Shown here: in pieces, positions 1-58,262 of the stretch | Layout of the letters: each line of letters opens with the position of its first letter | How positions within the stretch are numbered: position 1 is the stretch's first letter | Source of the DNA: Squalus acanthias | Lineage: Eukaryota | Length of the DNA stretch: 64,000 bases | Direction: 5' to 3' | NCBI GenBank assembly: GCA_030390025.1 | Contig: CM059428.1 | Coordinates: 148,986,001 to 149,050,000 of the forward strand | Position numbers and translations under genes: made by a program | Notes under the pieces: generated by a model | Seen by the model: only the letters and a program-made list of their open reading frames with translations | Database searches by the model: none | What the model was told of the DNA's origin: nothing

Positions 1-692
1 CTTGCTATTACTCTCAATTTTCAAAAGTCCCTTCAAAGTCAGCTCTCAAATCTTCTAGTACTCTTCAACATCAGAGTCTACTCAGTGAAACACCTTGGGA
101 TATTTTACCACACTGAAGGTGCTAAATAAAAGGTGTCATTGTTGTATGGCTTTCTGATGTGATTTACAGCTATAGTTCACTATATCAGGACTACATAGAA
201 ACTCAAACATCTGCAAAACTAGAAACTGCTATGGTATAAATTGTTTATCACAATTTTGAGTATCAAGGTGATTCAAAGGGGTAGGAGATCTTACCAATCA
301 AAGTACATCACACAATGTAGAGGTGTTACATTGCAAGCAGTACAAGGTGCATAGGAGGCCTGTATAAAATGCACAGAACCATTAAGTATTGCTTAATTTT
401 TTGTGGTTCTTTTGTAACAAATATTAATTATTGCAAACAAGATCTGAAAACCTCCTTGTCCGACTGAGACATTTTCAGGTTTTAAAATCATACAGGAAGA
501 GAAACTGTTGAATAGTCATGTTGTTAATGCAACATTTGCATTGATTCTTGACAGCCTCATTAACCATGGAATTTGACTGCTTTCAGTTCCACAAAATTCC
601 TTAAAACCTTTCAATGTATTCAATAAAAGCAGAATGTCTTCAATACTTTGGTGATTAGCAGTCCTACAATACTGCACATATCATTTTCTTAC

Positions 693-1075
693 CTTTTTTC
701 AGTTGAATATTGAGTTTCTTCCCTACTTTTTTGGTGTTGAAGCCTGTGGTAGGTGTAGAGCTCAATCTTTGGGGAGTTAGATGCTGGCCTGTTGGAGGTT
801 TTGACACCGAGTTCTGATTGTGAGGTAGATGAGAGTAAGAAGCAGTCTGATCGGCCTCATTGCTTGTTCTGGACAACCTCTGTGGTGTTTCATCAAAGCT
901 TGCATTTATAGCACTCTTTCGATCAGTGGGCTGAATATCTGCGTTGATTCGATTGGAATAACAGGTATTTTTATCGCCAAAGGAGACTTGTTCGTACTGC
1001 TCTTTATTTGCTGCTGGGACCACGTGGAACCAAATAACATGTGAGCGCATGGCTTGGCGAAACATATGTTGTGCT
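693..1075 (-). CDS. PARD3: PARD3 coding exon (end of PDZ1, PDZ1-PDZ2 linker, start of PDZ2), 383 bp
   Basis: Translates (Q)AQHMFRQAMRSHVIWFHVVPAANKEQYEQ...GFNTKKVGKKLNIQLKKG, recognisable as vertebrate Par-3. Acceptor tctag|AGCA at 1076/1075; donor AAAG|gtaag at 693/692. Phase fits the upstream exon (CA|A = Gln). Confidence 0.96.
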
Positions 1076-1378
1076 CTAGATTTAGGAAGGAAGGGAAATT
1101 AACAAATTAAGACTGTCAGTCTTAACAGAGATTATTAACATAATTACTATCATTAATTACATAGCATGGAAGGTTTTTTTATGCAAATGCAGCAACTGCA
1201 TCAATATTAACTGGATAGAAGTATTAATTACATCAGCGACTAACACTTATTATTGATGTGGGCTGAGAGATTAACAGTTATGCACCTGTTAATGTGAATG
1301 CAGAAAACAAAACTGCAAAGTGAAGTACATTTCAACAAGCAATTATACTACAAAGGAGAACAGGTTCATATACTTTTA

Positions 1379-1597
<219 letters not shown>

Positions 1598-2149
1598 TCA
1601 CAGCTCTTCATTTAGCACTTCAAAGTACAGTGCATAAAACATAATGGAATGCAAAATCCTCTCCTTCAGTTATTATTGCAATATGAATACATTTACAATG
1701 CAGTGCCTTTAGAAAACCGTTAGCTTAATAAAGATTTATCACACTTCAGTGTGACACAAATCTTATCTCTTCATATAACATTACCACTAGAATTACCACT
1801 TTCCCAGCAACTATTATCAAAGAAACACACATTTTTCAAGTGCTTTAAGGTGCTAATGTTGCACCAAAGTGGCAAGATTACAGTTTATTCCTACACAGCA
1901 CCTGCTGTTGAACATAACAACCTATTCTGTTTTTTCTGTGTATAAAACTGGAGATAATCAGCGCAATTCTATGATTTTGGTGAAAACAGTATTTGTGAAT
2001 TTTGGGTTTCATCCCCCAGCTGGCAAAAAAACACACATCAGCCCTTCCTGTTGTACAAAACTAAATCTAAAAAGACAGGACAGTGGAATTTCCAGTTTAT
2101 TCCCTATGGAACAGCTTCATAACCAGCTAATGGAATAGACAAGTTAATC

Positions 2150-2505
2150 ACTTAAGTCGTATTCCAGGACCTGAACACACAATCTCGGCTTATACCTCAG
2201 CGCAGTATTGAGGCAGTGCTGCGTTGTTGGAGGTGCTGTCTTTAGGGAGAGACATTAATTAAACTGAGGCCCCATCTGCTTGTTCAGGTGGGCATAAAAG
2301 ATCCGACAGCACTGTTTGGAGATCAGGAGTTCTCCTGGTGTTCATACAACATTCCTTCCTCAACCACCATCAAAAACAGATCAACTAGATATGCATTTCA
2401 TTTGCTGTTTGACTGCACTTCAAGAGTAATTCATTGGTTGGGAAGCACTTGGGAGACATCCTGAAGATGTAATAAGACACTATATAAATGCAACTTCTTT
2501 CTCTC
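2150..2505 (+). mobile_element. tRNA-derived SINE, degenerate
   Basis: Shares the body (ggaggtgctgtcttt...aaaagatcc...gcact) and tail (ctatataaatgcaa-ttctttct) with the copy at 24214. Confidence 0.8.
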
Positions 2506-3619
2506 TCAATAAATCTTTTGCCATTATTACTTTTTATATGCTGAGTTTAGATATCTGTACTGTGCTCATTTAAAAAAACCCTCCTCTCCTTACCCACACC
2601 AACTCAAATTTGGAGAGAGAAGTAAACAAGAGTTCAAAGTGAAGGTCTTAGTGAGTTAGAGCATCATTTTTACATTAATATCTCTGCCCCTAAGATACAT
2701 TCAACTACACCCATCTCTGGCAGAAAATGCTTGACAAGATGACGCTTATCTGTGAATGGAGCCCGAATGCAAGTACAACTTAACTTTTGAACAGATATGT
2801 ATTTATTTCAGGCATCTTATTAATGAGTAATTTGTAGGGGGACTACTGAACATCTTTCAGTGAAGGTGCAAGACCTGGACCCTCAATTCAGGTAATATTT
2901 GCTATCTTGTAAATGTTATTTTAAACCAGTATCGCAGAACAGCTACTGTTACAGCTTAGTTAGTGTAAACTACACCACATCACTTAACAATTCACACAAA
3001 TTATCCCTTCTGATGGGGCTTAGCACCAAGAAATAGAAAGCATTTTTATAAGCACTTGGAACCGCCTGAGGTGGTTGAAGTTGGGGCTTAAAAATGTGAG
3101 ACACATAAATTAACTGCCTATCCAAAGTAAAATGATTCCAGTTCATGTTCATAAATGATGACATGAGGTAAATAGTACTAAATGTGATAAGACCATTGTA
3201 GTGAATGATTGCAAGCTGAGATTGAAGCAATACTTGGGATGCTCCTCACAGCTGGATGTAACACAGCATTTGTACACATCACTACCAGTTTAATCCACCT
3301 CAACACCTTATGGCCATCAATTCAGGCTGTCAAGCGGAATTTAAAGCAAGGAGCTTCAGTGGAAAAGTAGGTGAATCAGCTCCAGTCACGAACACATTGT
3401 TACAGGGGCTGGCGATGATGTCTACAGGCAGCAGATTAGCACATCTGCTAGAAACATGTGCATAAATTTAATTACTGGTCAGATTAAATTAAAAATTTGC
3501 AATACTTAAACACAAGTAATTTATGCAAAATATCTTTGTCACGGTGCATGAAAAAATATTCTGATCAATGTACAATTTGCATTTATATAGACTTCAGAGC
3601 TAATGAACTACTTATGAAG

Positions 3620-3965
3620 TACAATCACTGTTGTTCTATAGGCAAAATGTTTGGTAATTTTTGCACAGTGGCAACCCATAAACAGCAAATCAATGATCAA
3701 ACAGTATTTTTTTTTAATGGTGTTGGTTAAGGAAAGAACGTTGGCTACGAGAGTGAGGGAGCTCCATGCTCTTCAAATAGTGCCGTTGAAACTTGTATGC
3801 ATACCTTAGCTTGGTTAAACACTTCATCTGAAAGATGGACCCCCTGACGCTGCAACTGAGCATTCCCTCAATACTACACTGTCTACATTCTGTGCTGAAG
3901 TCTGTAGCGGGGCCTAACCCACAATCTTCTAACTTGGGTGAAAGTGAGCTCAGCTGACACAAGCA
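3620..3965 (-). mobile_element. tRNA-derived SINE, degenerate
   Basis: Reverse-complement similarity to the SINE at 24214 (aacccacaatcttct, catctgaaagatgg). Confidence 0.65.
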
Positions 3966-4499
3966 ATAATCAGAAGACAGGGTGCACACAGGGACATAAA
4001 TGTGGATAACATTATTCAGACATGAAGGGTGAGGTCAAAGAGAGATTTGAATGCAAGGAGTAGAGTTTTGGAAATCGGGAATCACGAGGGAAAAGGGAGC
4101 GTGCAAGAATAGCATGGGTGTGTGCATGGTACTTTCATGGTGGCAGAGACGAGATTTTAATGTGGCCAACATACATGTTGAAGTTGGCTCCATGTTTTCA
4201 AATAATGCTGCTGAAGCCTAGCATGTAAATGGTTGAAAGGTAACCAAGGATGGAGCGCTAGGATATGTCAGTTCTGACAATGCATGCATAGGGAAAAAGC
4301 TACTAGAAGAGATGTGATGACTTTGTTGGGACCAACAGGAGTAGAACCATGAGAGAGCAAAGCCATAGAAATGGATCACAGAAGAACGATGGGGAATAGT
4401 GTAAAAGACGACACAGAAATAAGGAACAGCGAGCTTTGGACTTGGTCACACAAGGCATTGTTAGTGACTTTGATCAGAAGGTCTTAGTGCTCCAATGCC

Positions 4500-6255
4500 T
4501 CTCCTCCATTGCTCAGCTCGGTAGGACTGCCTTCACCACGTTCCACTCTTAGCTATCCGATTGTAGCCACAGTAATCTCTTACCAATGACTTCTCTTTCC
4601 ACTCCCACACAGTGACCTCGGGAGTTCCCCAAGGATCCATCCTTGGCCCCCCTCCTCTTCCGCATCTACATGTTGCCCATTGGTGATAACATCCAAAGAC
4701 ATGGGGTCAGGTTCAACACTCAGCTTTACTTCGTCACCATCTCGCTCAAACCCACCACCACCTTGGAGATACAGGCTTGGATGAGCTGCAATTTCCTCCA
4801 GTTTAACTTTGGGAAGACGGAAGCCAGTGGGCCAACATTTGCGATTGGAGACTTCCTGCGGGCGGACGCCTCCGACCTGCAAAGTGTCTACGAATTTACC
4901 TGGTGGCCCAGGAAGAATGGTGGCTTGCACTCCTGGGCCTCTCCAGGTCCGCGCGGGCAGAGCCCCACGTATCCCAGGGGCGCAAGCGGTTCGTAGGCGC
5001 TCCTGGGATCACGTGAGCTGGCCAAGGAAGAAGGGAATCCCCATTCAACCTTTTGACAGTTCTGTAAATACAGGACTGTCAAAAGTATGAATGGGGATCA
5101 CCTAAAAAAATACACCAACACATTAAATACATTTTTAAAAAAACATTACATATTTAAAATTAATTAAAATGACATTTAATTAAATATTTTAAACAAAAAT
5201 AATTTTTAAAATGTCAAGAAATTAAAATGTTTTTACAGGGCTAAAAATAAACTTACCTTTTTGAAGCATATTTTTAATTTATAAATCAGTTATTAAATTT
5301 CATTTTTCTATTTTTAAAACTCTTAAGCTGGTAAAAGCAGGCCTTACGCCTGCTTTTACCAGGCGTAAGAATTTGAGTCATTCAACGGGTGGAGGTTGCG
5401 CAAAAACTCTCCACCCGCAGAGGCACTTTTCTTGGGCAGGCGGATGATCGGTCAAGAGAATTCTTGACAGATCGCAAGTGACAGTTTTCAGCGCATGCGC
5501 TTCGCATGCCTGAAACCGGCACTTGCACGGCCCCCTACTGGCGCGTAAGCATCCGTAAGGGTCGCAAAATCCGGCCCCATGTGTTTGGACCCCAACACAA
5601 ATTCCGGACCCTCACCTCTGATTCCATACCTTCCCTGCCACTGTCTCAAGCTAAGCTAGACTGTTCAAAGCATTGACATCCTATTCAATCCCAAGCTGAG
5701 CTTCCGACTCCATATCTTCTCCATCACAAAGACTGCCCACTTCCACCTTTGTTACATTGCCCGCCTCCACGCCTACCTCAGCCCATCTGTTGCTGAAACC
5801 CTTACTTTGTTACTTTCAGACTCAGCTATTCCAGTGCTTGGCTAGCTGGCATTGCATCCTCCATAAATTTCAGCTCATTCAAACTCTGCTGTAATAAATC
5901 CTGCTCGCCCATCATCCCTGTCCTTGTTGTCCTACAGTGGCCTCCAGCTTCCCCAAGCTTCAAATGTCTCTCTCTATCTCTCTAAACTTGTACAATTTCT
6001 CCATTATTCTGACTATGACATTCTCGTGCATCCATCCCTTTTGTCTCAGAACTGGCAGCCGTGCCTTCAACGGCTTGGGCTCCACCTCCTTTAAGATCCT
6101 CCTTAAAACCTACCTCTTTGACCAAGCTTTTGGTCACCCCTGCTAATTTCTTCTTCTTTGGCTCAGCATCCATTTTTTCCCTTATGCCTCTGTGAAGCAC
6201 CTTGGGACATTTTTCTACATTAAAGGTGCCATTAAAAAGGTGAATTGCTGTTGTG
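4500..6255 (+). mobile_element. L2-like LINE 3' portion, degenerate, interrupted by a MITE
   Basis: RT remnants GVPQGSILAPLLFRIYMLP and WMSCNFLQFNFGKTEA. 3' end ccttaaaacctacctctttgaccaagcttttgg...tgtgaagcaccttgggac is shared with the other L2-like ends here. Confidence 0.8.
4829..5577. mobile_element. Non-autonomous DNA transposon (Harbinger-type MITE)
   Basis: Imperfect TIRs gggccaacatttgcga / tcgcaaaatccggccc. It splits the L2 sequence and is similar to the elements at 46674-49633 and 59700-60240. Confidence 0.8.
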
Positions 6256-8241
6256 GATAAGTCGAAAACTGGATTAGATTGGCTTGAACAAGGACTAGAG
6301 AGAGAGAGATAAGCACTTAACTATGCATTCAAGCACTTGGGCCAGAAATACTTTTGAGTCAGAGGTCACTCCTCCCCTCTCTCTTCCACTCAATACATGA
6401 TAATAGTCAACATTTATTGGAGTATTCAAGGTTACACTGAGTAAGGGAAAAGCATTTCCAAATACCCAAGTCTGAACACTACTATTTTGTTACTAACAGT
6501 CATTTTCATTCACTCTATTCCTGCTATTGAACAGTATTGACATTTAATGCAGACATCTGGAGTTTTAAAAATTTCACACAGCTTCTAATTTCAACAGAGG
6601 CTCAGAAGAACAGCCAACAATGTACTGTACGACAACTATTAAAATCAAATAACTCATAAGGAGCCAACCTATTTCTTAGCTTTTTATCGAAATTCATGCA
6701 GCAACACAATTATACACAGACAAATGGCTTTTTAAGTGATCTTAACTTTCATTCTGCTCCGGCCCTGCAATTTGCTCGCTGTATTTTGTCAGCTGTTGGT
6801 GAAGATGCACTGAATGACTTTCCTGACCTTTCTAAGTTGCAAAACCAGTGATGTGGCACAACCACTTTTGAATATTCAATACTTGTATTATGCTAGACGC
6901 AGGCTTTTGTTGAAGTGCACACATGCCTTCAGTTGTCAACAAAGCTGTGGTCTTTGGGCACTAAACATACATCTGCGCACAACCGGAAATGATTTATTTT
7001 GCAGCTGTCCACATTATTAGAATGCAAATAACATCTATTTTATTACTACTAAAAATGTACATTCGCTAAACCAGTTTTGCTCAGTCACACCAAGAAACAA
7101 CCAGAGACAATTTCTTACAAATTGGAAAACCCATCAACCAAATCCACTTCATCTAAGTCAACCTGGCACAACAGATGAGATTTACTTGCTGTCTGAATAT
7201 AGTATTTCAAGGTTTATTACCTAACAATTTTTCTTAGAATATAATCAATTCAAAATGAGATTATTCTGCTCAATATTATCTTCAGAAAGTTGAAGAAAAA
7301 CATTTTATGATAAAAGTGATATTCCAAGCTACAGTGCTCTACGCAACATTTTGTTTGTTTCAGGGAGTTGATAAGAGTTTGCTTGCATTGCAATTTTGAT
7401 ATTAAAGTTGTGTTTGATGTTCAAGAGCTGGGAAAGACCTGGCACCAGAATTGTTAGGGACAGAAAAGGCCACTGGGCACAAAAAGCCCTTTTAATAGAT
7501 TTCAGCGCCACCCATCCATCTTATCATGGCATCCTTCAATCACGTTTGACATTATTCTCACCCACTTAAGTCCTGTAGGCAATATTTCTAATCCTACATT
7601 TTTACACTCAACATATATTATCAAATGCATCCTTCAGCATCAGATATGCCTTTAATGAATGCTTCTCTTATGATTACAAAGATAACACAGACTGCTGTTT
7701 AAAAGGAATCATGTGGGTTGAGTGGAAAAAATGTTTTGCAATATCTGTGTTCTCATGCCAGTTCAGCTGCAGACAGTCGGTCACACAGCAGTTGGAACTG
7801 CAATAATGTGCAAGATCTAAAAAGCACAAGACAAAGCACAGATACGCTAAAACAAAATTATGAATTCATGAGGGTACTAAATTTAAAGCTGCAGTGCCCC
7901 GCCATTTATTTCAAGACATTATCTAAAACCAGAGCAAGAGACTATCATCCTACTGTCAGTGGAAACTGCACTATTCCTGTTTGTTTTATCCTATGTTCCT
8001 AATCGGTTAATGAATCTGTTTACAAATCTTTACTAAAGCATCAAAAATTCAGCAAAAGGAAAGTGCCATAACTTCAAATAAAGCCACTGCACTAAAAAAA
8101 AAGTACAATTTCTGGAGTACGAGCACAGAACTTGCCACACATTTCATTTTTAAAAATGTACTATTTGTTCGAGACTGCAGATTTAAATAATATGAAATAA
8201 AATTATAAAAGAAAAACAAACATGCAGAACACGTTACTTTA

Positions 8242-8394
<153 letters not shown>

Positions 8395-49914: not shown

Positions 49915-50362
49915 GTCAGCCATGGCTCCGTGGTAGCATTCCTGCCTCTGAGCAAGAGACGTGAGCACATAATCTAGGCTGATACTTACAGTGCAGTTCT
50001 GAGAGAGCTCTGCACTGTCAGAGCTGCTGTTTTTCAGATCAGGCATTACACCATTAATTTAGACGAGGGTCTTGTCTGTCCTCTCAGGTGGACATGAAAG
50101 ATACCATGGCACTATTCCAAGAAATGCAGGCGAGTTTTCCTGGTGTCCTGGCCAACATCTATCCCTCATCCAACATCACTAAAACAGATTACTTGGTCAT
50201 TGAACGTATTGCTGTTTGTCAGACCATGTGCACAAATTGGCTGCAACATTTTCCTACATTACAGCAATGACTATACTTTAAATGTACTTAACTGGCTGTG
50301 AAACGCTTTTGGTTGGACTGAGGTTGTGAAAGGCGCTATATAAATGCAAGTTCTTTCTTTCG
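49915..50362 (+). mobile_element. tRNA-derived SINE
   Basis: tggctccgtggtagc head, conserved core and gcgctatataaatgcaagttctttcttt tail. Confidence 0.85.
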
Positions 50363-50856
50363 TCTACAAACTTTTAAAATGCAAGCCTGTCATCACCGAA
50401 CCACTACTTGCTGATTTTTGTTGTCTGTCTTTCTTTCCAGCTTTGTGGCACCAAATTAAAGGGTTTGTCTTCCACCTAAGTTTCTCAATTAAAAAAAAAA
50501 TTAACAAGACAAAAGCATACATAATCGAACTATAGCATTATAGTACAGGAAACTAATTCCCATTCCCTTCCCTTGCACAAAAATTACTGATCCAAGCAAA
50601 AAATGTTCATCAGTTTTCAAGATGGTCAGTCCATTGCCAAATTGTATCAGGAGACAACAGCACATTTTGGAAATCTCAATCACTTTTCTTCCAAAAAGTT
50701 GAACTGAATTTTAAAAAAATGGCATTTTTTCTCCAGTTGATTGAAATCCTGGCCCACATGTTAAACAGCTCATCAAAACAGTTGCAAGTTTTATTGTAAT
50801 TCAACTGTATAAACATCATCCCACCCTGCGCTGCTGTTGTCTTTCCAGACACGTTC

Positions 50857-52112
50857 TTTTTTATTCGTTCATGGGATCTGGGCGTCGCTGGCAAGGCCAG
50901 CATTTATTACCCATCCCTAATTGCCCTCAAGAAGGTGGTGGTGAGCCACCTTCTTGAACCACTGCAGTCCGTGTGGTGAAGGTTCTCCCACAGTGCTGGT
51001 AGGGAGGGTGTTCCAGGATTTTGAGCCAGTGACGATGAAGGATTGGCGATAAACTTCTAAGTCAGGATGGTGTGTGACATGGAGGGGAATTTGGAGATGG
51101 TGGTGTTCCCATGCGCCTGCTGCCCTTGTCCTTCTAGGTGGAAGAGGTCGCGGGTTTGGGAGGTGCTGCGGAAGAAGCCTTGGCAAGTTGCTGCAGTGCA
51201 TCTTGTAGATGGTACACACTGCAGTCACAGTGGTGGAGGGAGTGAATGTTTAAAGTGGTGGATGGGGTGCCAATCAAGCAGGCTGCTTTGTCCTGGATGT
51301 TTCTTGAGTGTTGTTGGAGCTGCACCCATCCAGGCAAGTGTACAGTGTTCCATCACACTCCTTACTTGTGCCTTGCAGATGGTGGAAAGGCTTTGGGGAG
51401 TCAGGAGGTGAGACACTCGCCGCAGAATACCTAGCCTCTGACCTGCCCTTGTTGCCACAGTATTTATGTGGCTGGTCCAGTTAAGTTTCTGGTCAATGGT
51501 GACCCCCAGGATGTTGATGGTGGGGGATTTGGCGATGGTAATGCCGTTGAATGTCAAGGGGAGGTGGTTAGACTCTCGCTTGTTGGAGATAGTCATTGCC
51601 TGGCACATCTGTGGCGCGAATGTCACTTGCCACTCATCAGCCCAAGCCTGAATGTCGTCCAGGTCTTGTTGCATGTGGGCATGGACTGCTTCATTATCTG
51701 AGGAGTTGTGAATGGCGCTGAACACTGCAGACATCAGCGAACATCCCCATTTCTGATCTTATGTTGGAGGGAAGGTCATTGATGAAGCAGCTGAAGATGG
51801 TTGGGCCTAGGACACTGCCCTGAGGAACTCCTGCAGCGATGTCCTGGGGCTGTGATGATTGACCTTCAACCACCACAACCATCTTCCTTTGTGCACGGTA
51901 TGACTCCAGCCAGCGGAGCATTTTCCCCCCCGATTCCCATTGACTTCAGTTTTACTCGGGCTCCTTGATGCCACACTCGGTCAAATGCTGCCTTGATGTC
52001 AAGGGCAGTCACTCTCCCCTCACCTCTGGAATTCAGCTCTTCTGTCCATGTTTGGACCAAGGCTGTAATGAGGTCGGGAGCTAAGTGGTCTTGGCGGAAC
52101 CCAAACTGGTTT
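50857..52112 (-). mobile_element. Non-LTR retrotransposon, same lineage as 18520-19905, 5'-truncated
   Basis: [31 protein letters not shown] and QQDLDDIQAWADEWQVTFAP; 3' end gacgcccagatcccatgaacgaataaaaaag. Confidence 0.92.
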
Positions 52113-53791
52113 GATAACAATATGCAGACTTTCAGTGCAACATAATTTTTTATAGCACTACTATAATTTTTTCTTAGTGCAGCTACCTGAGAACATAAAA
52201 GATCTAAAAATGTTCATCAATAATAAAGAAATATCGACCAAATTCTAAAGACTGCAGTGCAGAATTAACAACAGTGGTTATAATTATTGTACACTTGCGG
52301 GGGAAAAATTCAGTATCGACCATTTTGGGGTGCTAACATCGCCCGGGCGCAAACTTTAGCGCCCGGCGCTAATTACCGCAAAATTCAGTTTTTAGCCCCC
52401 AGAGGGAAGTGGAGCGCTAAATCAAGCGCTACACACTTCTCTTAGAGCGCTAACGTCGGGGAGCAGAGCGCTACCTCAGAGCGCTACTCAAGCTCACGCA
52501 GTCAATTACTTGGTACTCAGGCAGACTGGCGCCTTCCAGTTCTTAAAGGGGAGGGCCAATCATGCTGCACAGCCTCACTCTGATCATTGCTGCTTGTGAC
52601 CTGGGCCTGCAAGGAGCTGCAATCCATCAACCACAAACCTCAAGGCTGCTCAGAGGCCCAGGGAGAGAGATCGCTGGTTCAGCGACCAGGCATTGGAGGC
52701 TCTGGTTGTGGCTGTGGAACGCCGATGGGCAGTGCTGTTCCCAGACACTGGCAGGAGGCCATTGCCCCGGGAGTTCACAAGGATGTGGAGGGAGGTGGCC
52801 CAGTACGTCTCGTCCAGAAGCCTGGTCCAAAGGACACACACGCAGTGCCGTCAGAATTTCAACGATCTCACTTGGGTGGTCAGGGTGAGTACATGCGTCA
52901 AAAACCTCGACATCCCACCATCTCAACCTCACTCTGTGCACAGACGGTATAAACCGCCAAATCCCCAACACTCGCCCAACAACTATGCCCATCTACTAAA
53001 AGTCACATCCACATCTCACGCCTTGCAGACATGAACAGCTATTCGACTATGGTAGGTACATCTGCCAAACACATGGCTGCACACTCACTCACACGCTGTC
53101 CTTTTTCTTGCAGGCCAAGCTTGCTCATAACAGGAGGGAGCAACAACGCACGAGAGGAGGTCAGGCGGAGCTGCACCCCCTTACACAGCTGGTGGAGCGA
53201 GTGCGCAGCATCATCACGGTCCAGGTTGTGGGCGCTGTGGCAGTCCCGAGGGTGAGTGCGCGCTCGAGTTCTGCTGCACAGGACTCAGATGAGGAACTCG
53301 ATGTCGAGGCGATGAGCATGCATACTGAGCTCATGGGTGCAATGGCAAGGGTGCCCGAGAGCATGGATGCACTGGCTTGGAGCGTGAAGGAGTCCGCCTC
53401 CAGCATTGCTCTTATCTCTGTGCAAACCTTCGAACCCATCCTTGGCACTTAGCAGAGGATGGTGACTCACAGAGAGACCGCGGGGACCCAGACCTCATGC
53501 CGCGTGTCATGGGTGAGGTGGCAGCAGCTATTGCAGCACAGGCCGAGGCAACTGGAGTCAGTGGTTGGTGGCATCCAATCTCAGACTGCTCTCATGCAGT
53601 CTCAGATTGACGCTATGCAAGCGCTGACTGCTGCCAACGTCGCTGGGTCACCTACTGTCCACCGGGGATCTCACTGTGCCGCAGCAGGCCAGCAATCTGT
53701 GCTCGAGCAGATTGCTCCGGATGCTGAGGTACTGCCCCGGGGGAGTGGCAGTGCGTCGGTCGAGCAGGAAGGTGCTATCCTCTCTCAGGAT

Positions 53792-54205
53792 TCCGCACTC
53801 ATGAGGAGGGCCTCAATCGCGATATCGGGTTCATGTCACGATACAGAACGTGACTTGACATCATGGCCGGTCTTCCCAGGTGTTTTTTTTTTAAAAAGGC
53901 TAACACAAGAACCTACACAGATTGACAGGATATGCAGCCAGCAGGTGGTTTGACACGTTGGACCCCCTGGGACACATCTCATTGTCTTGGCTATGCTCTT
54001 TGATGTGGGAAAGATTTGAATATATTTTGTCTGTGTTTAAATTGTGAATTCTGGGAGATTCTCTCACTGCTAAACTTACCTGACGAAGGAGCGAACTGCT
54101 CCGAAAGCTTGTAAAATTAAATAAATCTGTTGGACTATAACCTGGTGTTGTGCGACTTCTCATTTTTGTCCACCCCAGTCCAACGCCGGCATCTCCACAT
54201 CATCA
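53792..54205 (+). mobile_element. Penelope-like element 3' fragment with 12-bp TSD
   Basis: TSD ctctctcaggat at 53780-53791 and 54206-54217; begins with the ORF C-terminus FRTHEEGLNRDIGFMSRYRT* (53791-53853; GLN motif typical of PLE GIY-YIG ends); hammerhead motif; AATAAA. Confidence 0.88.
54076..54114 (+). ncRNA. Minimal type I hammerhead ribozyme motif
   Basis: TTAC-CTGACGA-A-GGAGC-gaact-GCTCC-GAA-AGCT-T-GTAA: core boxes CUGANGA and GAAA, 5-bp stem II, palindromic AGCU stem III, and TTAC/GTAA stem I. Confidence 0.72.
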
Positions 54206-54800
54206 CTCTCTCAGGATGACAGCATTCCTGCTCCCACCACTGCACTTGCCGCAGCCTGTAACCCAGCCAGCCCAGACTGCTGCCACCCATGCAGAGTTGG
54301 TGCAGTCTGCAGCCAGGGCCTTCCAGGCTCAGAGCTGGTCGAGGGCATCCTGCAAGGCCATCTGCAGTCTCTGGTGCCCAGACTCAGCAGCCTTCTGCCA
54401 GCCTTGCTGCAGCCACTGGGGCCCCATTACGGAGGAGCAGTAGGGTTGGGAGGGGGGAATTGCAAAGGGGAGGGACATCATTGAGGAAGGCCCAGCGAAT
54501 AAAATGTTAATAGCAACTGGGGGGAGTGTGTACACAACAGTTGATGTGTTTGTAAATATATTGTTCAGTTTGGTAAGAAATATTTCCGTTTGCTAAGAAC
54601 CAGTTGTGTTTGTTCATAAATTGCTGTGTTTGTTTATTACTGGTTGTGTTTGATGAGAGAGAGTTGTGCAGAATAATAAATGTTTATTTCGATGTAGCAA
54701 ATTTTGTGATGTTTCTCATTTGAGCTTTGCCCGGTGATCGGGGCTGCGAGCTGGCTGTAATGATGTGGCTGTTCTGAGCAAATGCCATCTGCTCGCTCAT

Positions 54801-55972
54801 TTATTGGAAGCGCTGTGTAATGAGGCGTTCACGAACGGCCCTTGCAGAAGCAACATTGAGTGGCTCCCTCCTACGTTGGTGCTGCTCCTCCTCCTCTTCA
54901 TCCTCCTCTTCTGCCACCTCCTCCTCCTGTCCCTCTTCCTCCTCCTGAGGTGGACCTGCAATCCCTGGTGGCAATGGCTGGGCCCTCAGAATGGCCAGGT
55001 TGTGCAGCATGCAGCACACAACAATGAAAAGGGAGACTCGATCAGGGTAGTATTGCAGGGCTCCTCCAGAGGCAGCGGATCCGTTACTTTAGCACACCGA
55101 TAGTCTGTTTGATCAGGTTCCTGGTGGCGCTGTGGCTGTCATTGTATGCGTGCTGAGCAGGAGTGTTGGGGTTGCGGAGGGGTGTCATCAGCCAGGTGGC
55201 GAGTGGATAACCCTCGTCTCTGAGCAGCCAGCCGCGAGCTTCATGTGGTGGTTGGAACAGTGCTGGTACACCAGTCTGTCGCAGGATGAATGCATCGTGG
55301 CTGCTGCCAGGATAGCAGGCATTGACGGCGAGGATGCGCTGTCTGTGGTCGCACACCAACTGCACATTCAGAGAGTGGTAGCCTTTGCAGTTATGGAACA
55401 CCTCTGCATTGTGATGAGGTGCCCGCAATGCCATGTGGGTGCAGTCAATGGCGCCCTGAACCATGGGGAAGCCCGCGATCCTTGCAAAGCCACATGAGCG
55501 TTCCTGCTGTTTGTCTCTGGTCATGGGGAATGAGATGTACTCCCTACTCCTTCTGTACAGAGCATCTGTGACCTCCCGGATGCAGCAATGGACAGCGAAC
55601 TGTGAAATGTTTGCAATAACCCCTGTTGAAGCTGGGAAGAAGTCGCTGGCGTAGAAATCGAGAGCAACTGTGACTTTTCACTGCCACCGACAGAGACGTC
55701 CTGGTCCTGAGCTGAGGCTGGAGCTCTGGCTGCAGGAGGTGGCAGAGCTCAGTGACCACCTCCTTGCTGAAGCGGAGCCTTCTAAAACACTGCTCCTCTG
55801 AGAGATGACTGTAGGAGAACTGCTGCCAGAATACCCTGGGAGGGTAAGGTCTCCTGTGCAGAGCCCTGTTGGCCCTCCTCCCTCTGGCCACATTTTCCAA
55901 TCTTTCTCTCTGCCTCCGCTGCCTCCGACGGTGAAGCTGGAGGGCGAGATCCCGTGCCAGTGCAACCCCCAT
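54801..55972 (-). pseudogene. Harbinger DDE transposase (HARBI1-like), disrupted
   Basis: MGVAL...FRRLRFSKEVVTELC; frameshift near 55680; GFPMVQGAIDCTH, KGYHSLNVQLVCD, PGSSHDAFIL, LLRDEGYP and TRNLIKQTIGVLK*; C-terminal CCMLHNLA and acidic tail. Confidence 0.93.
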
Positions 55973-57259
55973 TAAGTGCTGGAAATGTTGCAGTGTCAAA
56001 AGTAAGACAGATGAACCTGATAACATTTTTGTCAGGAGCAAAACTCCTTCAAGCAGGAAAACCTTAAATGGGTCAAAACGCCTGTCTGCTTCTGTCAAAG
56101 TGACAAGGCAGCATTGTTGGCTGACAACAAAAAAAACAGGAAGTGCGCGCCTTTAAATAGCGCTCCTGCAGCTCCCAGCAAACCGCCTCCTCTACCTGTC
56201 GTTCCAAACGGCAGGTGCTGAGGCAGAGCGAAAATGAATTTCCTGTCTGGGGCGCTACCGGAGCGATGCGCGGCTGGATGATGTCACGATCTCCGGGCGC
56301 AGGAGATCATGGCTGTAGTGTTTAGCGCCACCGCAAACCACCAGGTGAATTTCGGCAGCGGCGCTAACATCGCCGAGCTCAGGCAGTAAGTCATTAGCGC
56401 CCCCCAGAGGCGCTAACCAACCGAATATCTCCCCCTGGATGTCTTATCTGGAACCCAAGAGGTTCCAGCATTTACAATCCAAAAACTGAAGTCAATATTC
56501 ATTTTTTTAACACCCTATGGCTAACATACTAATACTTCAACTACACTAATCTAATTCAGTAAATATTGCAATAGATTATAGTCTCCTTAGGACAAAAGAA
56601 ATCTGTCAGGGTTTTGACATAACTGTGAAGATGCAGTCCCTCTTCAAGGAATCCAAGCAGAAATGGTAACACGATTGAATATATTTTCCTCCCTTCACTA
56701 ATTTTACCACAAAAGATGGCGAGAGTATGAAGCTGGTTTCTTCATTTTATACTTAGACATTTTGCTTACACTAGTAAACAAAGGTAAAAAAGGTGTCTGT
56801 ATTACCAGTTACACCAGAGGCTTTTTTCTATGTTAGAGGCGCTAAACAAATGCAAGTTGTTGATGTCGGGAAAATTGAATTGGAATATCACGGCTGCTGG
56901 CTCCTCTTGCTTTCTCCCGATTAGCCATACGAATTTTGGAATAGGTCTCACAGCAGGTTGCCTTTATGCCCATAGGGGTAGAACTACCCAAGAATAAAAA
57001 ATAAATCAGCTGGATGTTCAAAGCGGTAATTTTTGTTATATATGGTATAATGCAACTATTTTTGAGAATTATTCGCCCTTCTAAATTGCAACAGCTTCAA
57101 TTTAAATCCAACTCGGTATAAATTTACGGAGCAGTTTATTTGGTAAGACTCAACATTGCTCACTTCACATGGGATGCAAATAAATATCAACAGAAAAATA
57201 GAATTTCCGGTTACAAACCTGCGAAAAAGAACTATACTTGTGAGGTAACATCAAGTCGA

Positions 57260-58262
57260 CAGCACACAAACAGGCCCTTCGGCATAACTGGTCGATGCTG
57301 GCGTTTATGCTCCACACAAGCCTACTCCCACCCCTCTTTCTCTAACCCTATCAGCATATCCTTCTACTCCTTTCTCCCTCCTGTGCTTATCGAGCTTACC
57401 CTTAAATGCAGCTATGCTATTCACCGCAACTACTACTTGTGGTAGCGAGTTTCATATTGTTACCACTTTTGGGTAAAAATCATTCTCCTGAATTCCTTAC
57501 TGGATCTATTACTGACTATCTTATATTTATGACCTCAAGTTTTGGTCTCCCCCATAAGTGGAAATATTTTCTCCACTTCTACCCTGTCAAACCCTTTCAT
57601 AATCTTATAGACCTCGATCACGTCACCCCTCAACCTTCTCTTTCTAGAGAAAAGAGCCCCAGCCTGTTTAGTCTTTCATGATAGTTGTAACCTCTCAGTT
57701 CTAGCATCAGCATTGTGAATCTTTTTTGCCCCTTCCCCAATGTCTCTATATCCTTTCTATAATACGGAGACCAGAATGGTGCACAATACTCCAAGCAAGT
57801 TTAACATAACTTTGCTGCTTTTCAGTTCTATCACTCTAGAAATGAACACCAGTGCTTGGTTTGCTTTTTCTGATGGCCTTATTAACTTGCATCACTACTA
57901 TTAGTGATTTGTGTGTCTGTACCCAGAGATCTCTTTGCTCCTCTACCCCATTTAGACTCCTATTATCCAAGCGATATGTGGCCTCCTTATTCTTTCTACC
58001 AAAATGCACGACCTCACACTTATCTATATTGAAATTCATTTACCAATTACACACCCATTCTGCAAGTTTATCGATGTCTTCTTGTATAGTTTGTTGCATT
58101 CTTCCTTTGTGTTAACTACGCCCCCCAATTTGGGGTTATCCTCAAATTTTGAAATTGTACTTCCGATTCCCGAGTCCAAATCGTTAATGTAAATTGTGAA
58201 CAACGGTGGTCCCAGCACCGATCCCTGTGGAACACCACTTCCCACCTTTTGCCAGTCTGAGT
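57260..58262 (-). mobile_element. CR1 LINE fragment, degenerate
   Basis: [22 protein letters not shown] and FNIDKCEVVHFGRKN on the minus strand. Confidence 0.9.

Follow-up and report, generated by a model that had tools for sequence, protein, structure and literature searches.

The 414-bp insert that interrupts a dead Harbinger-type transposon in the stretch of the Squalus acanthias genome analysed here (64,000 nucleotides, hereafter the window; assembly GCA_030390025.1, contig CM059428.1, positions 148,986,001 to 149,050,000) is, with considerable confidence, a young, 5'-truncated Penelope-like element (PLE) that landed at a palindromic site hit at least 119 times in this genome, probably by way of a double nick staggered by 12 bases, and that carries an intact and probably silent hammerhead ribozyme. 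The element is identifiable as a PLE, is young and is flanked by a true 12-bp target-site duplication (TSD); 12 bp is also the modal TSD length of its family, whose targets share the motif CTGNC-N12-GNCAG, and insertion at this site has recurred in two orientations. The element and its ribozyme each add a new member to a known kind, and this copy and its ribozyme are in themselves ordinary; it is the target site that matters, PLE integration being poorly understood. A natural site so often hit, a TSD with its mode at 12 bp and a young, intact open reading frame (ORF), all in one genome, would offer both substrate and enzyme for a concerted dimeric double nick.

The insert is bounded by the 12-mer CTCTCTCAGGAT, which occurs twice in the window and nowhere else in it, at 53780..53791 and, as an exact match, at 54206..54217 (both on the forward strand), with 414 bp separating the two copies, as the preliminary description of this locus had it. 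The left junction alone gives a TSD of 11-12 bp, since the T at the end of the left copy may be element-derived, and the length is fixed at 12 by other insertions at the same Harbinger site. The duplication is a genuine TSD, as the site is single and free of any insert in 29/29 other Harbinger copies fetched, out of 39 listed as matches to the right flank. It is flanked by two target half-sites, TGCTATC on the left (53773..53779, +), with one mismatch to the family form TGCTGTC, and GACAGCA on the right (54218..54224, +). For the 5' junction, no bridging contig was found in four sequencing runs, whose pieces are too short to tell a fixed from a polymorphic insertion.

At its start the insert carries the last 19 codons and the stop of a 5'-truncated PLE ORF for a reverse transcriptase (RT) with a putative GIY-YIG endonuclease (53792..53853, +; stop at 53851-53853), ending ...RTHEEGLNRDIGFMSRYRT, the final codons also being written ...GLNRDIGFMSRYRT; this ORF end, recognised earlier as PLE-type, matches the C-terminus of an intact 888-aa ORF at another locus (L132). 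The 3' untranslated region, or pseudo-LTR, occupies 53854..54203 (+) and in the tandem master continues directly into the ORF start codon, while its last ~40 nt (54164..54203, +) form a 'tail' between two preferred RT start points, the inverted arms of copies elsewhere ending at the equivalents of 54163-54167. The last base of the element is 54203, after which the 3' junction has two untemplated bases, CA (54204..54205, +), additions of this type being recurrent at this Harbinger site. The window copy is simply truncated at its 5' end and has no inverted arm. A retrozyme, which would consist of tandem non-coding repeats with hammerheads, or a separate mini-element was considered and rejected, as the insert is single-copy and contains the ORF end.

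The host of the insert is a PIF/Harbinger-like transposon (52299..56435, its ends approximate and placed by eye) with a DDE_Tnp_4 transposase gene on the minus strand and a Myb/SANT gene on the plus strand, both broken. The Myb-like gene (Myb_DNA-bind_5, 21.4 bits against a Pfam cut-off of 21.7) has lost ~420 bp at 53245 and contains a frameshift and, at 53450-52, a TAG, all its lesions lying upstream of the PLE insert; the transposase, at about 54800-55970, occupies three different frames and is interrupted by a stop. Imperfect G-rich terminal inverted repeats, judged by eye, mark the Harbinger ends, and there is no clear 3-bp duplication. The transposon lies within an intron of a Par3-family gene that runs on the minus strand and that we take to be PARD3 rather than PARD3B, upstream of the PDZ-type exons found in the window at 667-1098, 1379-1597 and 8242-8394 (together spanning 667..8394, minus strand); the exons for the N-terminal part of Par3 lie 240-380 kb from the window on the same contig, and two short host-gene exons gave no Pfam detection. 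The insert is, as previously described, antisense to the Par3-family gene and sense to the Harbinger Myb gene. Within the same region of the host gene, 14.5 kb downstream, there is a second young copy (149053877-149054568 of the contig; L008/L121); it bears hammerheads on either strand, one of which runs in the sense direction of the Par3-family gene.

The view that the insertion is recent holds up well. All 40 of the other places scored, out of 1,455 candidates in the 3.7-Gb genome, are 99-100% identical to the insert, and the insert differs from L132 at 3 of 372 nt. At L132 itself the 888-aa ORF is intact and flanked by two hammerheads at a distance of 3,015 bp from each other. Its product contains an RT domain (RVT_1, E=2e-8) and, in its C-terminal part, a candidate GIY-YIG endonuclease with CCHH motif, namely VVYLIRCSKGCSRAWYIGET with two downstream histidines recognised by eye, the last 180 aa giving no Pfam hit at E<=1. 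The linker CHGNLCKTC fits the zinc-finger-like pattern CX2-5CxxC, which is described between RT and endonuclease in Neptune, and also in Nematis, in the relevant passages of PMC8557442; by this linker, which Nematis shares, the PLE is probably Neptune-type. The pseudo-LTR arising from tandem arrangement, the tail and the inverted 5' arm are all present in the family. Among young copies with both ends examined, 21/37 have an inverted 5' arm that lacks the final 31-40 nt of the element, the tail signature described in the portions of PMC11167929 and PMC3846280 drawn on here.

Across the family, the longest flanking repeat at 144 distinct tailed ends measures 12 bp in 50 and 12-14 bp in 92, the others being 8-11 bp in 39, 15-18 bp in 7 and absent in 6; these loci were not picked for the Harbinger site, some having been picked by insert or hammerhead similarity. 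The preliminary description had regarded a clean, long TSD as informative for PLE integration, and so it proves, 12 being the family mode and the targets sharing a weak palindromic motif, C-x-C-T-G-N-C, 12 bases, G-N-C-A-G-x-G, with a symmetric matrix of ~5.9 bits. The right half-site GACAGCA stands at +12..+18 in 353 tailed ends, where ~25 would be expected by chance. Outside the Harbinger hotspot it is enriched ~34-fold, as estimated by going through the first 100 matches among the 353 by hand: 59 fell in the Harbinger site or its variants and 41 elsewhere, some of the 41 being tandem duplicates or sites hit repeatedly within other repeats. The idea that targets in general obey a hairpin rule is unsupported, left and right flanks showing no excess of complementarity in the 50 exact-12 sites (p=0.75).

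Several other recurrent targets were encountered. Two, in other repeats, both end in GACAGCA (L295, L320 and L322; L299 and L305), one of them with TGTGTC as its left half. Recurrent sites were also seen at L025, L065, L173 and L180, such as GGGC-TTCATAAATAGA-GGCA, hit three times among 93 sites; the host sequences at these four loci are presumably CR1-type LINE coding regions.

At the Harbinger site the recurrence is far stronger. Already among the first 30 loci, an insertion at the same base was found in another Harbinger copy (L021/L127), and counts of tailed ends at that base reach 75 in the orientation of the window copy and 44 in the opposite one, at least 119 together. Set against 7,368 empty sites and 38,398 tailed ends, chance predicts 0.038 per base and orientation, or ~0.08 for both, which makes the enrichment ~1,560-fold; taken over all 15 registers of the search pattern it is 131-fold. 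Two Harbinger sites, each scored in one orientation, served as controls: a neighbouring 15-mer had received no insertion and the best-scoring site by the matrix (12.7 bits) a single one. The TSDs agree with the family mode, being 12 bp in 17 and 7-14 bp in 7 of the first 30 loci (left end not in view in 6), 12 bp in 11/12 insertions in the opposite orientation, and 12 bp in 26 and 7-11 bp in 6 of 60 further ones (left end outside the stretch in 28).

What makes this one base so attractive is accounted for only in part by the position weight matrix, which was rejected as a full explanation: it gives the hotspot 4.6-7.6 bits and placed it 17th, then 7th, within one Harbinger copy, while over-predicting the top-scoring site. 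Since the matrix fails to predict the hotspot, interior sequence or other factors matter, and the interior of the target, DNA shape or a bound protein may contribute. The two half-sites, TGCTGTC and GACAGCA, form a perfect inverted repeat around the TSD, and two fully matched half-sites at ~34-fold each would roughly account for the hotspot, 34-fold squared being ~1,150, near the observed value. An alternative of rather low probability attributes the recurrence to some property other than recognition of the half-sites, namely a cruciform or hairpin at the 7-bp inverted repeat, a bound protein, chromatin, or microhomology between RNA and DNA during priming. The inverted repeat itself, the uneven performance of the matrix and microhomology of up to 8 nt at some junctions elsewhere would fit this account; against it stand the lack of excess flank complementarity, the half-site enrichment also seen outside Harbinger, and the commonest hotspot junction, which has no homology to the continuing RNA. 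That a single Harbinger-with-PLE composite was amplified or gene-converted, Harbinger being itself mobile with thousands of copies, can be set aside as extremely improbable, because the hotspot inserts differ in hammerhead subfamily, junction, orientation and length (131-1,259 bp) and, over 30 loci, their host flanks are only 81-92% alike, which marks the insertions as independent.

Some 3' junctions at the hotspot carry untemplated or slipped CA repeats between tail and target (CA, CACA, CACACGCA), which bring to mind a telomerase-like RT that copies reiteratively. Where the target is identical to the ORF start (CCTCTATT), some 3' ends, at L025 and L072 and at L014, continue into that start by as much as 11 nt, so that microhomology can shift the RT start.

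The target is symmetric, it is used in either orientation, TSD length is fixed and inverted arms occur, from which we infer a symmetric, dimeric double nick with a 12-nt stagger. A dimer of the PLE protein would read the two half-sites, each strand being nicked just 5' of GNCAG, 12 nt apart. One nick would then have primed reverse transcription at the end of the tail (54203), cDNA synthesis would have stopped after about 412 nt, and repair of the 12-nt overhangs would have produced the TSD. In many other copies a further cDNA, primed by the second nick and begun at the tail-less start, may have given rise to an inverted arm, which the window copy is without. It is only from the tandem master, with two motifs 3,015 nt apart in a single transcript, that the ribozyme would be expected to act, probably aided by protein. 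Some observations run against the double-nick model: the hotspot ranks only 7th-17th by the matrix and the matrix-top Harbinger site is nearly unused, the left half-site of the window copy is mismatched, and in 52/144 ends the longest repeat falls outside 12-14 bp or is missing. On balance, it seems rather probable that a two-fold symmetric GIY-YIG dimer nicks CTGNC-N12-GNCAG, can prime from either nick and favours palindromes more than 1,000-fold, the hammerhead possibly leaving a trace at the 5' ends of insertions.

The means of integration proposed here both resembles and departs from those described for other PLEs. In the part of Craig et al. 2021 (PMC8557442) that concerns endonuclease-bearing Neptune elements, insertion is linked to a microsatellite bias and TSDs are treated as variable, arising when the second strand is cut late, after target-primed reverse transcription, whereas here TSD length peaks sharply at 12, and insertion is into a palindrome that is non-repetitive and has hotspots of a single base. 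PAc, a Poseidon element of Anolis carolinensis and the sole full-length PLE protein assayed, shares with the present family two RT starts 30-40 nt apart, which define the tail, according to the passages available from Frangieh et al. 2024 (PMC11167929); there, both strands were nicked and extended and a dimer was predicted, in agreement with the double-nick model. PAc prefers ATT in AT-rich DNA, in contrast to the palindromic site and GC-containing flanks preferred here, its ribozyme overlaps the start codon, whereas the copies studied here have their cut site 91 nt before the ATG, and the fixed 12-nt stagger of the present family emerges from genomic copies alone (PMC11167929, same passages). 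The Pen2/Pen3 elements of Adineta vaga likewise have an inverted, shorter 5' pLTR, a 31-bp tail and TSDs, though of 8-10 bp, in a handful of copies and, in the excerpts of PMC3846280 at hand, with no target motif. Neither a palindromic PLE target with fixed stagger nor a comparable hotspot came up in a literature search with partial coverage of work on PLE targets, or in the passages obtained from PMC12910113, PMC6765202 and bioRxiv 2026.07.22.740005.

The hammerhead lies at 54076..54114 (+) and is laid out exactly as first claimed, a minimal type I motif with a palindromic stem III: TTAC (54076-79), CTGACGA (54080-86), an extra A, GGAGC/GCTCC, GAA, AGCT, U17 at 54110 and GTAA (54111-14), with the cut predicted after 54110 and stem III formed only by dimerisation through AGCU. 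The core (CUGANGA/GAAA/UH), the G10.1-C11.1 pair, the extra base after A9 and the palindrome 15.1-16.1 that permits dimers, AGCT in this copy, are all present. It is the only match to this hammerhead family in the window, and the scan with hammerhead models that had been proposed as a check gave no Rfam hammerhead match at E<=10 in 50000-58000. Genome-wide, 64,324 matches to a single pattern were found, one per 58 kb, with none to the reversed control; being matches to one pattern, they set a lower bound of at least 64,000 minimal hammerheads, so that the window copy is hardly the special case it had been taken for. Many subfamilies vary in N7 and loop II while their stems are preserved, and the core and stems of the window copy are identical to those of the young family (39/41 motifs in L001-L030).

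Two features at first regarded as flaws are family norms. Position 17 is U in 250 of 280 motifs and C in the other 30, and the U in the cleavage triplet is thus no sign of decay in the window copy. A U at position 17 cleaves more slowly than a C. The extra base after CUGANGA is A in 280/280 motif contexts of the fetched loci, a count that is partly circular, many loci having been picked with patterns near that base, and it is a conserved feature of PLE minimal hammerheads in the relevant passages of Cervera and De la Pena 2014 (PMC4209133). Stem covariation among copies, the other check proposed, came out in favour of helices I and II: paired cells make up 86.3% across 16 aligned variants and 77.0% after shuffling, with the covariation score reached by 0/500 shuffles, although few independent changes lie behind it, and helix I shows one clean U-A/C-G exchange, TTAC/GTAA in 90 and TCAC/GTGA in 117 of the 280 motifs.

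The ribozyme of the window copy is an ordinary, typical PLE minimal hammerhead. It shares with those described in the same portion of PMC4209133 the type I topology and 4-bp helix I, the unpaired base between 9 and 10.1, G10.1-C11.1 and the palindromic 15.2-16.2, as well as the habit of occurring mostly as single motifs in truncated PLEs, and differs in its 5-bp helix II and in U17 being the norm. The copy number here is ~7x the highest vertebrate count of that 2014 survey, which gives ~4,000 for coelacanth and ~9,000 for Xenopus, the search methods differing between the two studies (PMC4209133, as far as the excerpts go). Such a number is enough to assess cleavage in vivo from insertion ends alone.

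Whether the window copy cuts anything is another matter. The preliminary description had it cutting the Harbinger Myb transcript, and a version of that proposal, in which it acts as a monomer or in trans with other copies, would draw on the match of its core and stems to the young family, the covariation behind the fold, the abundance of potential partners genome-wide, the small accumulation of 5' ends at the cut site described below and the coverage of the PLE family by contigs from two possibly-RNA runs, depth in which is not evidence of expression. The proposal is nonetheless very unlikely. The monomer cannot form stem III, its loop being 2 nt, and ViennaRNA gives the active dimer -16.9 kcal/mol against -19.6 for two monomers, leaving the dimer 2.7 less stable; the closest possible partner on the same strand lies beyond the Harbinger, at 14.5 kb. 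In the accessible sections of PMC4209133, the monomeric minimal hammerhead of S. mansoni showed zero cleavage and dimers cleaved at a low level, and the Anolis ribozyme is described in the PMC11167929 passages as protein-assisted and dispensable for insertion. With a solitary motif, monomers inactive in published tests and a Myb gene already broken upstream, cutting of a putative Myb transcript is unlikely, and there would be no intact gene to act on; the lone ribozyme is probably unable to cut itself here and is likely a silent passenger.

For the family as a whole, a possible trace of activity is found at the 5' ends of insertions. Among 212 tail-selected copies (L141-L170 and a subset of L191-L423), 178 have a direct arm that reaches beyond the ribozyme cut site on its upstream side, which indicates that most templates were uncut, 26 start downstream, and 8 begin within 1 nt of the predicted cut. 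This pile-up has p of about 1e-5 to 0.05 depending on the background, the backgrounds having been entered by hand and being off by 1-2 counts, and 2/8 are explicable by stem I microhomology; it is suggestive only of cleavage in vivo by the family ribozyme. Many more direct arms end or fold back 24-43 nt upstream of the cut, around the 5' half of the ribozyme.

Rarer minimal-hammerhead families with another stem II, and with ACGT in place of the AGCT palindrome, occur at L093, L105 and L109. A subfamily with CCGACGA for CUGACGA (U4 to C), making up ~8/85 ends in L208-L287, has spread despite the altered catalytic core.
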